Below the pieces are notes generated by a model. That model worked only from the letters and a program-made list of their open reading frames with translations. It had not been told where the DNA came from and searched no databases. The position numbers were made by a program, and so were the translations under genes. Positions 1 through 27,237 of a stretch of 64,000 nucleotides of DNA are shown one piece after another (the stretch's first letter is position 1; each line of letters begins with the position of its first letter). This DNA is from a bacterium. GTDB taxonomy: Bacteria > Hinthialibacterota > Hinthialibacteria > Hinthialibacterales > Hinthialibacteraceae. The stretch lies in NCBI GenBank assembly GCA_963663405.2, contig CAXXSM010000149.1, positions 32,001-96,000 of the forward strand, in the 5' to 3' direction.

Positions 1-2682
1 GCAATGAAGTCAAAAGGATTCAGCGGGGCGATGCTTTTTGACGCGGGGGGCGCTGAGCAACGGGGGAATAGCCAAGTTCCACCCGGACCGACTTTCGGCA
101 GTCCAGAATGGCGTGAACTGTATAAACACGCTCTGAAAGAAGCGGAGCGGTTAGGTTTGGTTTTGGGGCTTTCGATCCAGAGCGGTTGGAATCTGGGGGG
201 GCCGAATGTGACGCCTGATTTTGCGGCTAAACAGTTGACATTTTCTGAAATCGATATTGCGGGACCGGCGAAATACAATAAGAAACTTCCTTTGCCAAAG
301 ACGAGAAACGATTTCTATCAAGATATCCGTGTTTTGGCGTTTCCAAAAAAGGCGTCAGAAAAAGCAGCTCCCATTCGTGATCTACAATTGAAATCCATGT
401 ACCGGGAATTGGGTGGGTCCGCTCCCGACTGCCGGTTTTTGCTTGATGATATACCGGGTACGCCCGGGGAGGCGGATGTCCGTCTCAATGAGATTCGTGA
501 TATTTCGGATTGCTTGAATACAGATGGCGTTCTTACTTGGGATGTTCCACAGGGGGAATGGATTGTGCTGCGTTTCGGCGCCACGCTGACAGGAGCGCAT
601 GTCTCCACGTACAGCGCGGATTGGCATGGAATGGTGATTGACTATTTAAAGAAAGAACCGTTTCAGCGGTATTGGGATGAAGTAGTAGCGCCTTTGATTG
701 AAGACGCCGGTCCTTTGGTTGGGTGTGTGTTGCAGCAGCTGGAAACGGATAGTTGGGAATGTGGGGGGATGAATTGGACGGAGGGATTTGAAGATGAATT
801 TATGCGTTTCCGAGGGTACGATCCAATTCCATACCTGCCGATTTTTGCTGGAAAAATTGTTGAAAGCCGGGAGATCAGCAACTGCTTTCTCGCAGATTTT
901 CGAAAAACGCTGGGGGATTGTGTCGCGGAGAATCATTACGGTCAATTCGCCCATCTAGCTCATCAGCTGAATCTCGAAATCCAGCCGGAATCGGGCGGGC
1001 CTCACGCGGGGCCGTTTGACGCGATGAAAAATCTTGGGAAAAACGATATTGTCATGGGGGAATTCTGGGTTCCTTCCCCCCACCGGCCGAAACCGGAAAA
1101 CCGGTTCTTTATCAAGCAGTCATCTTCTGTCGCGCACATCTATGGGAAGCGGTATGTGGGGGCGGAATCGTTTACTTCTATTGGGCCGCATTGGGATGAC
1201 GTTCTTTGGAAATCGCAGAAACCCAGCGCGGATCATGAATTCTGTTCGGGACTCAATATGATCTTTTTCCATACCTTTACCTGTTCACCAAAAGAGATGG
1301 GGCTTCCTGGGCAGGAGTATTTCGCTGGAACGCATATCAATCCGCAAGTGACGTGGTGGGAATATTCCGGCGCGTTTATTACGTATCTGAACCGGTGTCA
1401 TTATCTATTTCAGCAAGGCCGGTTTGTGGCTGACGTTCTGTATTATTATGGCGATCACGCGCCGAATTTGGTTCGTCTCAAAGAAGACGATCCAGCAGGG
1501 GCGCTGCCCGGTTTTGATTACGATGTGACCAATGAAGAGATTGTTTTGCAGTTAATCGTCGATGATGGTTTGATTGTGGTTCCTGGTGGCGTTCAATATC
1601 AGATACTCGTTCTGCCGGACCACAAAGTTCTTTCGCTGGCGGTTCTTGAAAAAGTGGATGAATTACTCAAAGACGGCGCTGTTGTTGTTGGCCCTAAGCC
1701 AGAACGTCTTGTCAGTTTGGTTGGCGGTGAAGAAAGTCAGAGTAAGTTCAAAAGAATCGCTAACAAACTATGGGGAGTGGATCCGGCTCCGATTGGTGAA
1801 AAGCCGATTGGCAAAGGTCAATTGATCTGGGGAAAGTCAGCGCGTGAAGTGTTATTGGAACTGGATCGATCACCGGATTGCATGGTTGAGAATGCAAAAC
1901 AATGTGTGGATTATGATTACATCCATTATACAATCGATGGCGCTGATGTTTATTATGTGTGTAACCAAACCGAAACGCCACTTGCTATGAATTGTGTGTT
2001 CCGGATTCAAGGCAGGCAGCCGGAATTATGGGATCCCATTTCTGGTGAAATTCGGGTATTGGAGGCTTTTTCACAACGTGATGGGGGGATGGAGATTCCT
2101 CTTCGTTTTACGCCTTATGGATCATGGTTTGTTGTCTTTCGTCAATCGATTCCTCAAAACAAGCAGGGAACTCAAAAGAGTAATTTTAATGAATACAAAA
2201 TGATCCAGCCGATCGATGGTCCTTGGACGCTGCATTTTGATCCAGAGTGGGGAGGGCCGGAAGAAGTTACGTTTAATGACTTGATTAGTTGGACGGATCA
2301 TTCCAATCCGGGAATTAAATATTATTCGGGAAAAGCTACGTATGCGAAACGCTTTGATTTTTTGTATCCCCAAAAAACAACAAAGCGTTTCTGGATTGAT
2401 TTAGGGTTGGTGAAGGATGTCGGAATCGCCGCAGTCCGGTTGAATGGAAAAGAATTAGGGATCGTATGGACGCCACCGTTTCGCATAGAATGCACGGATG
2501 CTTTGCGTGCGGGTGAAAATCAACTTGAAATCGATGTGATCAACTCATGGCGCAACCGGCTGATCGGCGATCGTGAATTGCCGGAAGAGAAACGATTGAC
2601 GAAAACGAATATTACAGTGCGGCCGGATTGGAAATTGATGGATTCGGGATTATTGGGGCCTGTGGTGATTTTATCGGAATGA
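1..2682 (+). CDS. GH106-family glycoside hydrolase (alpha-L-rhamnosidase-like), 5'-truncated by the window edge
   Basis: Motifs typical of GH106: GWNLGGP, TDSWE, MGEFW, AESFT, FFHTF, PELWDP, and a C-terminal sugar-binding domain ending NSWRNRLIGD...SGLLGPV. The frame is open to position 1 and MKSKGFSG looks internal. Confidence 0.85.
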   Translation, partial: AMKSKGFSGAMLFDAGGAEQRGNSQVPPGPTFGSPEWRELYKHALKEAERLGLVLGLSIQSGWNLGGPNVTPDFAAKQLTFSEIDIAGPAKYNKKLPLPKTRNDFYQDIRVLAFPKKASEKAAPIRDLQLKSMYRELGGSAPDCRFLLDDIPGTPGEADVRLNEIRDISDCLNTDGVLTWDVPQGEWIVLRFGATLTGAHVSTYSADWHGMVIDYLKKEPFQRYWDEVVAPLIEDAGPLVGCVLQQLETDSWECGGMNWTEGFEDEFMRFRGYDPIPYLPIFAGKIVESREISNCFLADFRKTLGDCVAENHYGQFAHLAHQLNLEIQPESGGPHAGPFDAMKNLGKNDIVMGEFWVPSPHRPKPENRFFIKQSSSVAHIYGKRYVGAESFTSIGPHWDDVLWKSQKPSADHEFCSGLNMIFFHTFTCSPKEMGLPGQEYFAGTHINPQVTWWEYSGAFITYLNRCHYLFQQGRFVADVLYYYGDHAPNLVRLKEDDPAGALPGFDYDVTNEEIVLQLIVDDGLIVVPGGVQYQILVLPDHKVLSLAVLEKVDELLKDGAVVVGPKPERLVSLVGGEESQSKFKRIANKLWGVDPAPIGEKPIGKGQLIWGKSAREVLLELDRSPDCMVENAKQCVDYDYIHYTIDGADVYYVCNQTETPLAMNCVFRIQGRQPELWDPISGEIRVLEAFSQRDGGMEIPLRFTPYGSWFVVFRQSIPQNKQGTQKSNFNEYKMIQPIDGPWTLHFDPEWGGPEEVTFNDLISWTDHSNPGIKYYSGKATYAKRFDFLYPQKTTKRFWIDLGLVKDVGIAAVRLNGKELGIVWTPPFRIECTDALRAGENQLEIDVINSWRNRLIGDRELPEEKRLTKTNITVRPDWKLMDSGLLGPVVILSE

Positions 2683-19103: not shown

Positions 19104-19950
19104 CTAGTGTTCTCTATAAACCTGAAGCGGCGTCTTATATCCCAAGGCTTGGTGTAGACGCTCATTATTGTAGAACTGAAAATAATCCGTTAGTCCGCGC
19201 ACACAATCATTCACCGTTTCGTAACTTTTGATATAGACCTCCTCATATTTCACTGACCGCCATAACCGTTCGACGAAAATATTATCGAACACTCGGCCTC
19301 TTCCATCCATGCTGATGAGAGTCCTCTCTTTCTTCAAGCGACTCGTAAAATCCGTGCTTGTGAATTGAGAGCCTTGGTCACTGTTGAAGATCGTTGGCTT
19401 ATCAATTTCAAAAGCCATCTCCAACGCTTCGAGGCAAAAGTCAACCTCCATCGAAGTGGAGACTTTCCATGACACCACATAACGACTAAACCAGTCTAAG
19501 ATCGCCACCAGGTAAACAAATCCTTGGCGCATACGTATATAGGTGATATCGGTGCTCCACACGTGATTGGGTCTTTCGATTTTCACTCCCTTCAACAGGT
19601 ATGGATATTTCTTATGCTGAACATTTCCGAGGCTCAAACGAGGCTTCGGGTAGATCGTCTCCAAGCCCATCACTCGCATTAAACGACCGATTCGTTTCTT
19701 ATTCACAACCCGTCCTAGAGTTCTCAACCATTTCTGCATTTTCCGAATTCCGTAAAACGGTGTCCGGGTATATTGTTCATCAAGCAGGTTCATCAGCGCT
19801 ACATTTTCGGCTGATTCGCCCACGGGTTGATAATAAAATCCTGAACGAGACAACCCCAGCAATTCACATTGCCTCTTTATTGAAATCTCAGAATTAGTTA
19901 GTTCGATCCAACTTCGTCTTTTCTTAACTGAGCACGTTAGACTTTTTTTT
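19104..19950 (-). CDS. IS3 OrfB (DDE integrase core)
   Basis: WSTDITYI, FNSDQGSQF and DNIFVERLWRSVKYE. The frame is open upstream of 19862 to the A9 run (KRRSWIE...ISIKRQCELLGLSRS). Confidence 0.93.
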
Positions 19951-20223
19951 TACCCAATCAAGTTCGACTTTCATTTGCCCAATCTGGCGGTAAAGTTCCG
20001 ACGTCAGTTCTTCGGCTTCCGCTTGACTCTTTTCTTGCTTGCGTGAAAACAAGCCTGGGATTTCTTCCAACAGGCGCTTTTTCCACTGTCGAATCTGGCT
20101 CACATGAATTTTGTAATCGCTCGCTATCTGGGTTAAGGTCTTCTCTCCTTTGATTGCCTCCAGTGCCACTTTGCCTTTGAACGCTCCATCAAAATTTTTT
20201 CGCATTTTCATCATTTGGTTCAC
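19924..20223 (-). CDS. IS3 OrfA (HTH)
   Basis: FKGKVALEAIKGEKT...WKK...LYRQIGQMKVELDWVKKKS. Confidence 0.92.
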   Translation of the reverse strand: MNQMMKMRKNFDGAFKGKVALEAIKGEKTLTQIASDYKIHVSQIRQWKKRLLEEIPGLFSRKQEKSQAEAEELTSELYRQIGQMKVELDWVKKKSNVLS

Positions 20224-20444
20224 CTCTTCTACCTATTGTCGGCTTCGAGGTAACCTACCTTAGATGGCTGTCCGAATTTTGGGGTACAGTATATTACACC
20301 TAAATTTTCTTGATTTATATCTTGGCGCCTCAGTTTGCTGGTTCAGTAAACCATGTAATGAAATGATGCTTTTTTTATTTTTTTCGCATATTCCACTTGA
20401 AAATCAATACATCATTCTAGATAGTGTAACTCAAAACGCAGTCC

Positions 20445-20523
20445 ATGTGGAAGCATTGAACTGTTTTCCTTTAATTGGTCGCCAATAGGAAAACAGGGAG
20501 CGAGTGGCGAATCCCCTCCAATA
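20445..20523 (+). ncRNA. c-di-GMP-II-like riboswitch aptamer (variant)
   Basis: GGAAGCATTGAA-[CTGTTTTCCT]-TTAATTGGTCGCCAAT-[AGGAAAACAG]-GGAGCGAGTGGCGAATCC: perfect 10-bp stem, kink-turn-like TGA/GA flanks and a TCGCCA/TGGCGA pseudoknot, about 30 nt before the start codon. Compared with the consensus from memory. Confidence 0.7.
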
Positions 20524-20551
20524 ATCTATTCTTTTTTAGGAGAATTTATCT

Positions 20552-23464
20552 ATGTCAATTTCAGTTGGAACACTCCATCAATTCTATTCACGAACGATTT
20601 TTATTGTTGTCTCGCTGGCTCTTTTAAGCGCATTTATAGCCAACAACTCCATCGCGCAGAACATCAACGATTCCGCCCATTTCCCGGATCCGAATTTCCT
20701 AGCCGCTGTTGAGAGTTTCATGGGAGGAGATTTCACCGAGGCCCAAGCGGCGGCGAAGACAGGTGATTTTGGCTGCTCAAATCTATCTATCGGTGATTTG
20801 ACCGGAATAGAATATTTCACCGGTATAGGGGGACTCAACTGCGAGAAAAATCAATTAACCAGCCTGGATATCTCCAATAATACTGCTTTGAATTTTCTCA
20901 GATGCGGTGAAAATCAATTAACTAGCCTGGATGTCTCCCTCAACACCGCTTTGGATTATCTCTGGTGCAATAACAATCAATTAACCAGCCTGGATGTCTC
21001 CTACAACACCGCTTTAACTGAGTTCAGATTTTTTGGCAATGAATTAACCAGCCTGGATATCTCCAATAACACCGCTTTGACTACATTCAGCTGCGGTGAT
21101 AATCAATTAACCAGCCTGGATGTCTCCAACAACACCGCTTTGGCTATACTCTATTGCTATGAAAATCAATTAACCAGCCTGGATGTCTCCAACAACACCG
21201 CTTTGGCTATACTCTATTGCTATGAAAATCAATTAACCAGCCTGGATGTCTCCAACAACACCGCTTTGTCTGTGATCTACTGCTGGAATAATCAATTAAC
21301 CAGCCTGGATGTCTCCCACAACACCGCTTTGATTGAACTCGTGTGCTTTGCCAATCAATTAACCAGCCTGGATATCTCCCACAACACCGCTTTGACTACA
21401 TTCAGCTGCGATAATAATCAATTAACCAGCCTGGATGTCTCCCACAACACCGCTTTGACTATATTCAGCTGCGGTGATAATCAATTAACCAGCCTGGATT
21501 TCTCCAACAACACCGCTTTAGAAGAGTTCTACTGTAATTACAATCAATTAACCAGCCTGGATTTCTCCAACAACACCGCTTTGTATCATCTCCAATGCTA
21601 TGGGAATCAATTAACCAGTCTGGATGTCTCCAACAACACCGCTTTGGCTATACTCTATTGCTATGAAAATCAATTAACCAGCCTGGATGTCTCCAACAAC
21701 ACCGCTTTGTGGCATCTCCACTGCTATGAAAATCAATTAACCAGCCTGGATGTCTCCTACAACACGGCTTTAGAATGGCTCCGCTGCGATAACAATCAAT
21801 TGACAAACATTTCAAGTCTAGTCGTTAACACTGGTCTCGTATCAGGAGATAACGTAAATGTAAGTTACAACAATCTATCCTGCGATGATTGGGCTGATAT
21901 TCAGACATTGATAAGCCGTATTGGCGCTGGTTTTGTCTATTCTCCTCAAAATGGTTTTGATCCATTCTATTGCACCGTCAACATCAATACATCCGCCTAT
22001 TTCCCGGACGCGAATTTCCTCGACGCTGTTAGGAATTTCATGGGCCTCTCCTACCCAGAAGAACCTTTCACCGGCATCGATGCGGAGGCGAAGACGGGTA
22101 CTTTCGACTGCTCCGGTCTAAGTATCAGTGATATGACCGGAATAGAATATTTTACCGGCATAGAAAGACTCGATTGCTGGAACAATCAATTAACCAGCCT
22201 GGACGTCTCCAACAACACCGCTTTGACTGAACTCAATTGCGGTGTTAATCAATTAACCAGCCTGGATGTCTCCAGCAACACCGCTTTGGTTATCTTTTGG
22301 TGCAGTAATAATGAATTAACCAGCCTGGATGTCTCCAATAACACCGCTTTGACAAGACTCGACTGCGGTGTCAATAAATTGACCAGCCTGGATGTCTCCA
22401 GCAACACCGCTTTGACAAGCCTCCTTTGCGGTGTTAATCAATTAACCAGTCTGGATGTCTCTAACAACTCCGCTTTGAATCTCCTTTGGTGCGGTGGTAA
22501 TGAATTAACCAGCCTGGATGTCTCCAACAGCGCCGGTTTGACTGAGTTAAGATGTGATGACAATGAATTAACCAGCCTGGATGTCTCCAACAACACCGCT
22601 TTGACTATCCTCTATTGCGGCGCCAATCAATTAACCAGCCTGGATGTCTCCAACAACACCGCTTTGACTGGTCTCTATTGCGGTTGGTGTCAATTAACGG
22701 ACATTTCAAGTCTAGTCACCAACCTAGGTTTTGGAGCGGGAGATGACGTAGATGTAAGGTGGAACAATCTATCCTGCGATGATTGGGCGGCTATTCTTGT
22801 ACTGCAAAACCGGGGTGTTATTTTAGATTATTCCCCTCAGAATGGTATGAATCCATTTTATTGCGCGTCGATTGACACAAGTTACCTCGTCAATGGCAAT
22901 GGATTTGGCGGTCGATATTGGCCGGGGAGAATAAACGGCAGTTATTTTGACGCGCGGTTTATTCCAGCGACGGCTTTGGGCGGTGAAGAAACATATCCCG
23001 CGTGGTGCGCGGATATGCTTACCAAAATTCAACTGGGCGCGTGGTATAACAATGTTGGGATTTACACTTCTGAGACAGACGTCTGTTCCCTGGTTGGCAA
23101 TCCAGAGAATTTTAAATTTGTGAATTACTTGTTAGTCAATTATCGTTATGGCCTTTATGTAGGCGTTGACCAAAACGTAATCCAAGCGGTGGTCTGGAAA
23201 CTCTTATTCAATGGAAAAGCGCCAAAAATCGGGGGGAATGGGATCAGCAGTGGAGGATTCATTTCATGGGATGATTCGCTAGCCACATCTATTTATAATA
23301 CCGTGAGGACGACCCCGTCTTCCGATTTTCCCGATTATGAAAACAATTCATTTCTCCCCATCGCAATCATCATCGATACAGGTGATCAAGTGAATTTGCT
23401 GGAAATTCCGTATTGGATGTATCTTGAATTCATGGACTTGGGAATTGTTGGGGATTGTTCATGA
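20552..23464 (+). CDS. Secreted LRR protein (21-aa IRREKO-type repeats in two capped modules) with a putative C-terminal thioester domain
   Basis: AGGAG RBS and signal peptide. FPDxNF N-caps; 15 + 8 repeats of xxLxCxxNQLTSLDVSNNTAL; NNLSCDDW...PFYC C-caps; C-terminal AWCAD, IQAVVW and GDQVNLL. Confidence 0.9.
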   Translation: MSISVGTLHQFYSRTIFIVVSLALLSAFIANNSIAQNINDSAHFPDPNFLAAVESFMGGDFTEAQAAAKTGDFGCSNLSIGDLTGIEYFTGIGGLNCEKNQLTSLDISNNTALNFLRCGENQLTSLDVSLNTALDYLWCNNNQLTSLDVSYNTALTEFRFFGNELTSLDISNNTALTTFSCGDNQLTSLDVSNNTALAILYCYENQLTSLDVSNNTALAILYCYENQLTSLDVSNNTALSVIYCWNNQLTSLDVSHNTALIELVCFANQLTSLDISHNTALTTFSCDNNQLTSLDVSHNTALTIFSCGDNQLTSLDFSNNTALEEFYCNYNQLTSLDFSNNTALYHLQCYGNQLTSLDVSNNTALAILYCYENQLTSLDVSNNTALWHLHCYENQLTSLDVSYNTALEWLRCDNNQLTNISSLVVNTGLVSGDNVNVSYNNLSCDDWADIQTLISRIGAGFVYSPQNGFDPFYCTVNINTSAYFPDANFLDAVRNFMGLSYPEEPFTGIDAEAKTGTFDCSGLSISDMTGIEYFTGIERLDCWNNQLTSLDVSNNTALTELNCGVNQLTSLDVSSNTALVIFWCSNNELTSLDVSNNTALTRLDCGVNKLTSLDVSSNTALTSLLCGVNQLTSLDVSNNSALNLLWCGGNELTSLDVSNSAGLTELRCDDNELTSLDVSNNTALTILYCGANQLTSLDVSNNTALTGLYCGWCQLTDISSLVTNLGFGAGDDVDVRWNNLSCDDWAAILVLQNRGVILDYSPQNGMNPFYCASIDTSYLVNGNGFGGRYWPGRINGSYFDARFIPATALGGEETYPAWCADMLTKIQLGAWYNNVGIYTSETDVCSLVGNPENFKFVNYLLVNYRYGLYVGVDQNVIQAVVWKLLFNGKAPKIGGNGISSGGFISWDDSLATSIYNTVRTTPSSDFPDYENNSFLPIAIIIDTGDQVNLLEIPYWMYLEFMDLGIVGDCS
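20849..21793 (+). repeat. 15 x 63-bp coding tandem repeat (42 bp constant + 21 bp variable)
   Basis: Constant part AATCAATTAACCAGCCTGGATGTCTCCAACAACACCGCTTTG recurs at an exact 63-bp period. Confidence 0.97.
22184..22687 (+). repeat. 8 x 63-bp coding tandem repeat (second LRR block)
   Basis: Same constant unit and period as the first block. Confidence 0.96.
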
Positions 23465-25563: not shown

Positions 25564-27237
25564 CTATTGATCCAGGATTTTCTTCTCATCGGGGAGGCGG
25601 GGGCCTGCGTGCCCGTCGGGAATCTGGGAAAGTGAAATCGAATTTAAATTCGAGGATGCGCCGATCTCAAAGCAATAGGCCCACCAATTCAGAGCCGCGT
25701 TCATAACTTGATCACAATCATAATAACGATTGCGTCCAAACATCGTTCCATCACTATAGATGTCGTATGCCCAAGAGTTTGGATCGTATGTGATAAAATA
25801 CTCTCCATCTTCCGACCAGCCTTTTACAATTAAAAAGTGTCCGCTGTCGTAATTATAAAAGCGGTCGAAATAAGGTTGGCGGCTGTAGTCGATCCATCTC
25901 ATCTCCATGCAAAGCAATACAATGTTTCCTCGTTCAAGAATTTGATCGATATCCGTCCGGGACGAGACAGAATGGATTACGAAGGGAGTATTATATTTTT
26001 TTAAAGCTTTTTGGATATCGGATGTATACCACCAGCCGTTGTTACGGCGGTTGACATCCCGGATCGTATCGACGGGGATATCTTGATTTGAATACCATTT
26101 GATGGCCATATGAGTCGATGTTGGCCCGCAGTTGTTGTCCGACGCTGGGCCTGTGCCCATTTGGGTTTGGTACCACTCATAAGGCCGGGAATTATGTTCT
26201 GAAGCGACCGGATTGACCGTAAGCAGCATCTCTCCGAAAACATCGCCGAATTGCGCGAAAATCCATGAATTTCCACTATTCAATCCACAGACGGTTCCAG
26301 AACCGTCAACCGTGGCGGTCTGGTTGTTACCGGAACTCCATACATAATTGAGATCTTGAATGGTGTTTTCTGAAGGATCGTACGCTACGCCTGTTAAGAC
26401 CGCTCTTTCATCGATGTCTACTTCCAGCCGTGAGGGATCGATCTCGATTTGCTCGATGAGTAAGGGGCTGGGTGTGTTTGTGGGTATTTCCGTAGGAACA
26501 GGTGTGGATGTTTGCGTAGGTTCTGGGGTGGGTGTTGTTGTGGGTATCTCCGTAGGAACAAGTGTGGATGTTGGTGTTGGCTCTGGAGTGGATGTTGGAT
26601 TTTCCTCCAGTGGAGTGAGGCTCACAATCTCTGGATCGTCCACATCACCGTCGAGAAATTCTGTATGATAATACCGTTCCGGATCAAGCAGGTAATATTC
26701 GAAATTGTCAAGATAGACCGTTAATGGTTCTGTATCGCTCGTGTTGATAACTTGAATCAACGGTTGGAAACCGGTCGATGGAGGGATAAAAATATCCGCA
26801 AGGCGCCGGTATTGATTTTCAAAATACGCTTCTCGCGCAGGGGTGAGAGTCGATACGAAACTATTTTCCCCTGCGTCAATTGTCGCGAGGGTGATCGATG
26901 CGTGCGGCGCGTCCGCCCGGACAGAGCAGCGGATCAAGGCCATATTCTCCGTCGTTACAACGGGGCCGAATATCATGACGCCTTCGCCGGGATCGGCCTC
27001 AATGATTAATCCCCATCCATCTGTCGCGCCTTGAAATGTGTTATACTTTGGAAGGACTCCAAGAGAAATTGCTGGTTCCGGGTAGGCGCCAAATCCGGCG
27101 CCCATAAAAGAGACGCCTATTTCGTCCAATGAATCGCCGGAAAAATCAAATTGGACGTGTTCTTCTCCCATGCTTAACGGTACATAGAACAAAGAAATCA
27201 ATACGGCAAGTATGAATCGAACAGCGTCTTTCATCAA
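25564..27237 (-). CDS. Secreted protein: shared N-terminal domain, Pro/Thr linker, Big_2 Ig-like domain, C39-like cysteine peptidase
   Basis: Signal peptide; PTPEPT linker; WSSGN..TATVD.SG.V.G; catalytic-type NCGPTS...GHF.IVKG...YDP. Confidence 0.8.
   Translation of the reverse strand: MMKDAVRFILAVLISLFYVPLSMGEEHVQFDFSGDSLDEIGVSFMGAGFGAYPEPAISLGVLPKYNTFQGATDGWGLIIEADPGEGVMIFGPVVTTENMALIRCSVRADAPHASITLATIDAGENSFVSTLTPAREAYFENQYRRLADIFIPPSTGFQPLIQVINTSDTEPLTVYLDNFEYYLLDPERYYHTEFLDGDVDDPEIVSLTPLEENPTSTPEPTPTSTLVPTEIPTTTPTPEPTQTSTPVPTEIPTNTPSPLLIEQIEIDPSRLEVDIDERAVLTGVAYDPSENTIQDLNYVWSSGNNQTATVDGSGTVCGLNSGNSWIFAQFGDVFGEMLLTVNPVASEHNSRPYEWYQTQMGTGPASDNNCGPTSTHMAIKWYSNQDIPVDTIRDVNRRNNGWWYTSDIQKALKKYNTPFVIHSVSSRTDIDQILERGNIVLLCMEMRWIDYSRQPYFDRFYNYDSGHFLIVKGWSEDGEYFITYDPNSWAYDIYSDGTMFGRNRYYDCDQVMNAALNWWAYCFEIGASSNLNSISLSQIPDGHAGPRLPDEKKILDQ

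Follow-up and report, generated by a model that had tools for sequence, protein, structure and literature searches.

Thioester domains (TEDs) of bacteria have been described as Gram-positive modules located near the N-terminus or tip of sortase-anchored proteins, where they attack host proteins (PMC4450167, PMC8092201, PMC13685950). In the definition given by Walden et al. (2015; PMC4450167), three core helices lie between beta regions, a Cys occurs in a [YFL]C-hydrophobic-hydrophilic motif in beta context, and a distal Gln, also in beta context, occurs in a weak hydrophobic-Q-hydrophilic-hydrophobic-hydrophobic motif. A helix motif, TQxx-hydrophobic-W, is found in most but not all TEDs. According to the same source, the Cys and the distal Gln are the sole fully conserved residues, pairwise identity among the highly divergent adhesin TEDs falls as low as 12%, and known TEDs react with lysines of host proteins. 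One TED protein, CD3246 of C. difficile, is encoded directly under a class II riboswitch for cyclic di-GMP (c-di-GMP) and is described as a single Gram-positive adhesin, anchored by sortase and set free by the protease PPEP-1 (PMC11477304). Here we report a TED-like domain at the extreme C-terminus of a leucine-rich repeat (LRR) protein from an uncultured bacterium of the Hinthialibacteraceae. The protein is encoded in a 64,000-nucleotide stretch of DNA (hereafter the window; contig CAXXSM010000149.1 of assembly GCA_963663405.2, positions 32,001 to 96,000), and the same tail ends many other genes of this genome. By a slight balance of probability, we favor the reading that the tail is a divergent, thioester-forming TED that serves as a general C-terminal covalent tether for exoproteins induced by c-di-GMP.

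The features of the locus are collected in Table 1. The N-terminus of the predicted protein (MSISVGTLHQFYSRTIFIVVSLALLSAFIANNSIAQ) has the layout of a Sec signal, with charged, then hydrophobic, then small residues (judged by eye), and the LRRs have a unit length of 21 residues in both arrays (Pfam LRR_4, E 1.2e-46). Nearly every repeat between 20833 and 22684 contains a Cys at a fixed position (xxLxCxxNQLTSLDVSNNTAL), and three of the repeats are identical in protein sequence. The NCBIfam model for internalin J gave a partial, sub-threshold match to the LRR protein (462.8 bits; cut-off 1700). Cys742 and Cys771 are located in the LRR C-terminal cap, and this cap recurs after the first LRR block. 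An initial annotation, made from the letters of the window, had proposed a C-terminal TED starting at 22870 and recognizable by the motifs YPAWCAD (with Cys819), VIQAVVWKL (with Gln878 and Trp882) and GDQVNLLEI (with Gln946). Translation of the open reading frame (ORF) places all of these residues exactly as claimed, with the motifs starting at residues 815, 876 and 944, and the proposed domain start is at most two codons from the one adopted here.

Table 1. Features of the TED-tailed LRR gene and its leader, in window coordinates.
Feature	Position	Strand	Evidence or remark
c-di-GMP-II-like aptamer (RF01786)	20440-20527	+	42 bits, E 1.3e-7, model positions 1-84 of 84
AGGAG, probable ribosome-binding site	20538-20542	+	9 nucleotides before ATG; read from sequence
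ORF, 970 residues	20552-23464	+	signal-peptide-like N-terminus, two LRR blocks, C-terminal TED-like domain
LRR block 1	20833-21771	+	63-nucleotide period, 14.9 copies (Tandem Repeats Finder; Pfam LRR_4)
LRR block 2	22184-22684	+	63-nucleotide period, 8 copies (Tandem Repeats Finder)
TED-like C-terminal domain, residues 772-970 (199 residues)	22865-23461	+	AlphaFold2 model, Foldseek, VIA-align
Cys819, proposed thioester cysteine, motif W-C-A-D	23006-23008	+	sequence, family conservation
Gln878-Trp882 (IQAVVW), counterpart of the TED TQxx-hydrophobic-W helix motif	23183-23197	+	sequence, conservation, model; codons 23183-23185 (Gln878) and 23195-23197 (Trp882)
Cys845, probable disulfide partner of Cys969 (inferred pairing)	23084-23086	+	co-occurrence in copies of the same genome
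Gln946, proposed thioester glutamine and acyl donor to a target amine	23387-23389	+	conservation, structural-alignment offset
Cys969, penultimate residue, in conserved tail GIVxDC	23456-23458	+	alignment

An AlphaFold2 model of residues 772-970, computed from an alignment of 21 excised domains (alignment A2, described below), has a mean predicted local distance difference test score of 83.1 and a predicted TM-score of 0.84, with low-confidence loops at domain residues 14-22 and 120-129. The model contains strands at domain residues 7-9, 28-32, 43-48, 65-68, 165-171 and 176-182, and helices at 80-94, 103-114 and 137-148. Using Foldseek, all seven matches in the PDB at E <= 0.001 are TEDs, namely the N-terminal TED of Cpa (4c0z) and the TIE-TED of C. 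perfringens (5a0g); further TEDs (2xi9, 4bug, 5dcq, 6fwy, 6fwv and 5a0n) were found at lower rank. In a second look with VIA-align, 29 of 934 chains had Z >= 2, all of them with Z >= 5, and the 12 entries listed are all TEDs. The best of these is 5a0g_A (Z 9.7, rmsd 3.7 A, 146 of 175 residues aligned). In an independent VIA-align search of 48,161 representative PDB chains, the eight best hits were all TEDs (Z 9.7-6.7), followed at rank 9 by a cyclin with Z 3.4. Because of the gap between ranks 8 and 9, and because the matches cover the full domain, the model provides a clear assignment of residues 772-970 to the TED fold. Thus, the comparison of a model with solved structures matched thioester domains only and bears out the proposal of a C-terminal TED, with three motifs in the right order and in the right secondary structure context. 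The helical region around VIQAVVWKL and the late strand with GDQVNLLEI, which had been guessed from the letters, agree with the model.

The topology of the model, with three helices between beta regions, is that of published TEDs. Cys819 ends strand 43-48, Gln878 and Trp882 are in helix 103-114, and Gln946 is just before, or opens, strand 176-182. The Cys motif (W-C-A-D, in a strand) and the helix motif (I-Q-A-V-V-W) are both recognizable, although the W before the Cys lies outside the published Y/F/L set and Ile or Val replaces the Thr of the helix motif. Among relatives the residue before the Cys is W, Y or F. The surroundings of Gln946 (D-Q-V-N-L) do not fit the weak published Gln pattern; those of distant relatives (I-Q-T-T-V, R-Q-T-V-L) are closer to it. 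The Cys and Gln are 127 residues apart, and 129 residues separate Cys138 and Gln267 of CpTIE (PMC4450167). Structural alignment pairs model residues 4..183 with CpTIE 101..275, and the corresponding PnTIE chain range is 53..255. Gln946 (domain residue 175) precedes the end of the aligned range by 8 residues, and so do Gln267 of CpTIE and Gln247 of PnTIE; the Cys offsets in the aligned ranges agree within 4-7 residues. Across CpTIE, PnTIE, SfbI and Cpa, the offsets of Cys and Gln agree within 0-7 residues. The order of the motifs, their predicted secondary structure context and the Cys-Gln spacing are all consistent with a TED.

The closest known relatives by fold are the class I TEDs of Gram-positive TIE adhesins (CpTIE 5a0g, Cpa 2xi9/4c0z, SfbI 5a0l and FNE 5dcq; PF08341), with Z 8.4-9.7 and 146-163 residues aligned. 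The motif order (strand Cys, Q..W helix, late-strand Gln) is the same, and both are compact domains on secreted proteins. Unlike these TEDs, the window copy is missed by PF08341, is one of about 22 paralogues with unrelated passengers, and contains the additional pair Cys845/Cys969. TIE-type adhesins combine an N-terminal TED, a stalk and a C-terminal LPXTG. This architecture is absent here: the TED is at the extreme C-terminus rather than the N-terminal tip, there are no isopeptide or ester stalk domains and no LPXTG, and the remainder of the window protein is LRR. Also different is the host, a diderm whose 82%-complete genome yielded no sortase.

A phmmer search of 1.84 billion cluster representatives identified 30 proteins at E <= 0.001, 17 of them at <= 1e-10 and nine at <= 1e-30. 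A word-based search with the domain returned nine relatives, and a second one started from relative P0021 added one new protein. The partners of the domain among relatives include LRRs, subtilase, GEVED, PD40, PKD/cadherin-like, beta-helix plus IgGFc-binding, and Laminin_G. The 21 domains of A2 are 25-83% identical to the window copy. Trp882, Leu884, Trp906 and Gln946 are invariant in all 21, and 90% or more of the rows share Cys819, Asp821, Gln878 and Ala879. Among the paralogues of the genome that contains the window, every row that covers the column retains the respective Cys, helix Gln, Trp or distal Gln. The three motifs are more than chance. A link to the Pfam family is provided by P0021, which matches the window domain at E 3.9e-9 (phmmer) and Pfam TED at 22.5 bits (gathering score 22), the latter match beginning at AWCVD (residue 209) and spanning IQAAIW. 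P0023 matches Pfam TED at 18.1 bits, and two of the 21 family members match it overall. A phmmer search of the PDB with P0021 found no TED.

The domain contains three cysteines. Main-clade copies have Cys845 together with Cys969, whereas six diverged copies lack the two, as would be expected of a disulfide restricted to one clade. Such a bond would leave Cys819 unpaired, although co-occurrence that tracks clades is weak evidence for such a pair. P0028, a 578-residue external metagenome protein, has two TED-like domains in tandem, the second of which retains the motif residues. The first is degenerate: the Cys, the Gln and Trp of the helix and the distal Gln are all missing from it, so that P0028 looks like a natural 'dead' copy beside a 'live' one. 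A further external protein, P0030 (371 residues), is a low-complexity repeat protein that matches only domain positions 1 to 40-50, five times. This match is probably spurious, and the protein was excluded from A2.

The genome that contains the window (8.44 Mb, 170 contigs, 82% complete) has 24 matches to A2. These correspond to 23 ORF rows in a six-frame scan, or about 22 genes distributed over 17 loci. Frame breaks divide two of the genes into overlapping frames (C39:1119-2008 and C87:15973-16609). The domain ends no more than 23 residues from the stop codon in all of these copies, and no more than four in most. Its passengers include six LRR proteins, a subtilase, GEVED, PD40 and PKD proteins, and several proteins without a Pfam match; another is a giant of 2904 residues with FGE-sulfatase, fn3, caspase and PKD domains. 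Most have signal-like N-termini (by eye). The 14 full-length main-clade tails have a mean pairwise identity of 58% (44-91%), with 40 of 195 columns invariant. Since one tail ends about 22 genes with unrelated passengers, it is a general module, and the LRR is one cargo among many. The initial annotation had described an LRR-specific device that recognizes and then tags its target, which is too narrow. For the same reason, its parallel with the mosquito pairing of LRIM1/APL1C and TEP1 is not supported.

The domain is found in four of 19 genomes of the same family, with one copy each inside ORFs of 1544-1950 residues, and is absent from the other 15 genomes of the phylum. The phylum is small and uncultured, and 35 species genomes were considered. 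A pattern scan of 185,579 species genomes matched 42 pattern stretches, none of which was confirmed as a relative. Together, these counts indicate that a rare domain has expanded in a lineage-specific manner. The PF08341 profile had no match in the window's own genome, a result that is uninformative because none of 14 control genomes was matched either.

Upstream of the gene is a c-di-GMP-II-like aptamer, in line with the c-di-GMP control that had been proposed for this gene. It ends 24 nucleotides before the ATG, with AGGAG in between, and contains the conserved core stretches GAAGC..UGAA and GGAGC.AGUGG. Its score is below the Rfam gathering score of 53.5, and a scan at that threshold does not list it. 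The 3' arm of the aptamer contains a CCUCC (20515-20519) that could pair with the AGGAG, and such pairing may have a role in regulation. The genome contains 20 RF01786-like matches (best, 52.8 bits). Nine of these are directly upstream of nine TED-tailed genes, including the window gene, and about 0.004 such placements are expected by chance (an arithmetic estimate). This repeated placement just before related genes argues that the sub-threshold matches are real. The remaining 11 matches are at six further loci, three of which have tandem double or triple aptamers. These arrays precede short ORFs without a TED tail, with three aptamers at C38:19821-20076, three at C106:58402-58659 and two at C18:33777-33950. 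Tandem class II aptamers would be expected to give cooperative switching.

In C. difficile, class II c-di-GMP riboswitches mostly switch genes on at high c-di-GMP (PMC11477304), and by analogy the TED-tailed genes may be switched on under the same condition. CD3246 is similar in that a TED protein is directly under such a riboswitch. It differs in that it is a single Gram-positive gene, whereas at least nine riboswitch-preceded genes occur here in a diderm, every aptamer being below the Rfam gathering score.

Genes for Omp85 (two matches) and LpxC were identified, which marks the organism as a lipid A-synthesizing diderm. This agrees with the probable diderm host of the initial annotation, which had also noted no obvious anchor; the search for a sortase in this 82%-complete genome was negative. 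Also present are 18 dockerin and 11 cohesin matches (e.g., a dockerin/cohesin-type region at C55:6522-6704 on the minus strand), and in some LRR paralogues a dockerin takes the place that the TED-like tail has in the window protein. Thus, C-terminal display modules are a habit of this organism. A row of genes at C6:27055-35131 encodes LRR and PD40 proteins, each with a near-identical dockerin-like tail of ~70 residues, and the last gene of the row has a TED-like tail.

Our preference for a general tether to a shared acceptor is based on the presence of one tail on many cargoes, including enzymes, on co-regulation by a signal for sessile life, and on the lack of any other evident anchor. In the proposed mechanism, Sec export would precede formation of an internal thioester between Cys819 and Gln946. 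The thioester would be buried against the IQAVVW helix, in a domain stapled by a Cys845-Cys969 disulfide. A primary amine of the acceptor would then attack the thioester, with formation of an isopeptide bond at Gln946. Exoproteins of the sessile, high-c-di-GMP state may be fixed to one shared acceptor in this way. The acceptor would most likely be part of the cell envelope or biofilm matrix and less likely of a host or prey surface, and the LRR blocks of the window protein would be the displayed binding part. A more specific possibility, put forward tentatively, is that the tail allows a diderm to anchor its own exoproteins covalently and without sortase, in which case these proteins, once across the envelope, would acylate an amine of the surface or matrix of the cell that made them. 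Candidate acceptors include a lysine of an outer-membrane or S-layer protein, an amino sugar, or phosphoethanolamine. The outcome would be a surface covalently decorated with LRR binders, proteases and other cargo.

Several observations weigh against a thioester-forming tether. Residues 772-970 matched no Pfam family at E <= 10, including Pfam TED (the PF08341 gathering score is not reached), no NCBIfam model, and no PDB chain sequence in a single-sequence search. The family profile had seven chance-level matches to PDB sequences (E 0.34-1.5), none of them a TED. Comparison of A2 with residues 1-310 of the pLS20 TIE adhesin, which has a class II TED, was not significant (hhalign; 16 columns, probability 0.8%) and aligned only the Q..W helix stretch. 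TM-scores to solved TEDs are moderate (0.38-0.49; rmsd 3.5-4.2 A). The motif deviations (W before the Cys, I/V for T, and D-Q-V-N-L) would count on the same side, as does P0016, a relative in which Arg replaces the Cys and all else is retained. The conservation is in part paralogue redundancy, since 10 of the 21 rows of A2 and 12 of the 30 database representatives are from the window's own genome. Finally, all 20 aptamer matches score below the gathering threshold.

Part of this evidence would be expected if the domain had the TED fold but formed no thioester, and functioned as a non-covalent binding or assembly module comparable to a docking dockerin, with the Cys and Gln serving folding or ligand contacts. 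We consider this rather unlikely. In its favor, the sequence is too diverged for Pfam TED, the motifs depart from published patterns, P0016 keeps the domain without the Cys, non-covalent C-terminal modules already exist in this genome, and a shared fold is not proof of shared chemistry. On the other hand, the Cys and the distal Gln, the sole fully conserved residues of known TEDs (PMC4450167), are both kept at 23-32% identity, and the one clearly degenerate copy has lost them together. In addition, Cys819 is the odd cysteine once the Cys845/Cys969 pair is set aside.

Another function that could be considered is the one in the initial annotation, in which the TED acts as a warhead against foreign surfaces, whether of host, prey or phage, and variable LRRs recognize the target before it is covalently marked. 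Known TEDs attack lysines of host proteins (PMC4450167), six of the TED-tailed genes have LRR passengers, and a self-anchor is not evident. However, the same tail is found on the subtilase, PD40, GEVED and PKD proteins and on the FGE-sulfatase/caspase giant, for which a shared acceptor fits better, and the paralogue tails average 58% identity, compared with values down to 12% for adhesin TEDs (PMC4450167). A warhead matched to its cargo therefore fits less well than the general tether, and we regard it as improbable.

A Cys-His peptidase or transglutaminase is not supported, as no His is present in invariant or near-invariant columns and no such fold occurs among the structural matches. Very improbable is a C-terminal sorting or secretion signal for an outer-membrane machine (type IX C-terminal domain- or PEP-CTERM-like) that is processed after export: the position at the extreme C-terminus throughout this genome, the GIVxDC motif conserved within a few residues of the stop, and the many paralogous genes with diverse cargo, a pattern typical of sorting tags, speak for it, but C-terminal sorting domains are typically short beta-sandwiches or a transmembrane helix, unlike this 199-residue alpha/beta fold, no processing-enzyme gene recurs beside the 17 loci, and the domain is internal in relatives outside this genome (P0021, P0023, P0026 and P0033).

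Two other systems resemble the proposed tether in part. Dockerin-cohesin display also places a conserved C-terminal module on many secreted cargoes, but dockerins are non-covalent, ~60 residues long and of another fold, so that the likeness is one of use and not of homology. Complement C3, insect TEP1 and bacterial alpha-2-macroglobulin, like the proposed tail, use a Cys-Gln thioester to move a protein onto a target nucleophile. These thioester proteins differ in fold, and their motif is contiguous and of the CGEQ type. A GCGEQ motif is quoted in PMC12692319. No protein of this type is among the Foldseek matches or those from the 48,161 chains searched with VIA-align. TEP1 and its LRR partners are separate proteins, whereas here the LRRs and the TED-like domain are fused.

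Our literature search found no bacterial TED that is from a diderm, C-terminal or fused to LRRs, although supplementary tables, which were outside the search, could list such architectures. Occurrence in a diderm as such may not be unique, as the ESM Atlas hints at TED-like clusters in Pseudomonadota; the nearest Atlas cluster has PF08341 on 11% of its members (a language-model search, and a lead only). The novelty lies in the architecture, in how widely the module is reused, in the regulon and in the host, while the chemistry would be of a known type. The family is distinguished by its escape from Pfam detection, its occurrence in a lipopolysaccharide-bearing bacterium, its use as a C-terminal module on about 22 cargoes, and its wiring to c-di-GMP riboswitches. 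Should the thioester form, the sessile program of a diderm would include covalent tethering of proteins, and the domain would represent a small self-reacting tag that is modular by nature. Other self-ligating protein tags have biotechnological uses, and a comparable use would be conceivable for this one. If self-anchoring is correct, a Gram-positive host-attack warhead would have been turned into a general display system, and a new self-ligating protein tag would be gained. Without thioester formation, the family still shows the spread of the TED fold beyond current profiles.

Genes adjacent to the 17 loci were compared for recurrence, and no dedicated partner or processing-enzyme gene was identified. 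Two recurrent neighbor groups were rejected as partners because they consist of LRR or dockerin-tailed paralogues and of chained partial similarities. Just upstream of the riboswitch in the window, on the minus strand (19104-20223), are two consecutive ORFs of 99 and 252 residues that look, by eye, like the two frames of an IS3-type transposase. Downstream, also on the minus strand (25564-27237), is a gene for a secreted-looking protein of 557 residues with a Thr/Pro-rich linker, Big_2 and Peptidase_C39_2. The N-terminal domain of this protein shares 48% identity with an ORF close to another TED-tailed gene, on contig C4.

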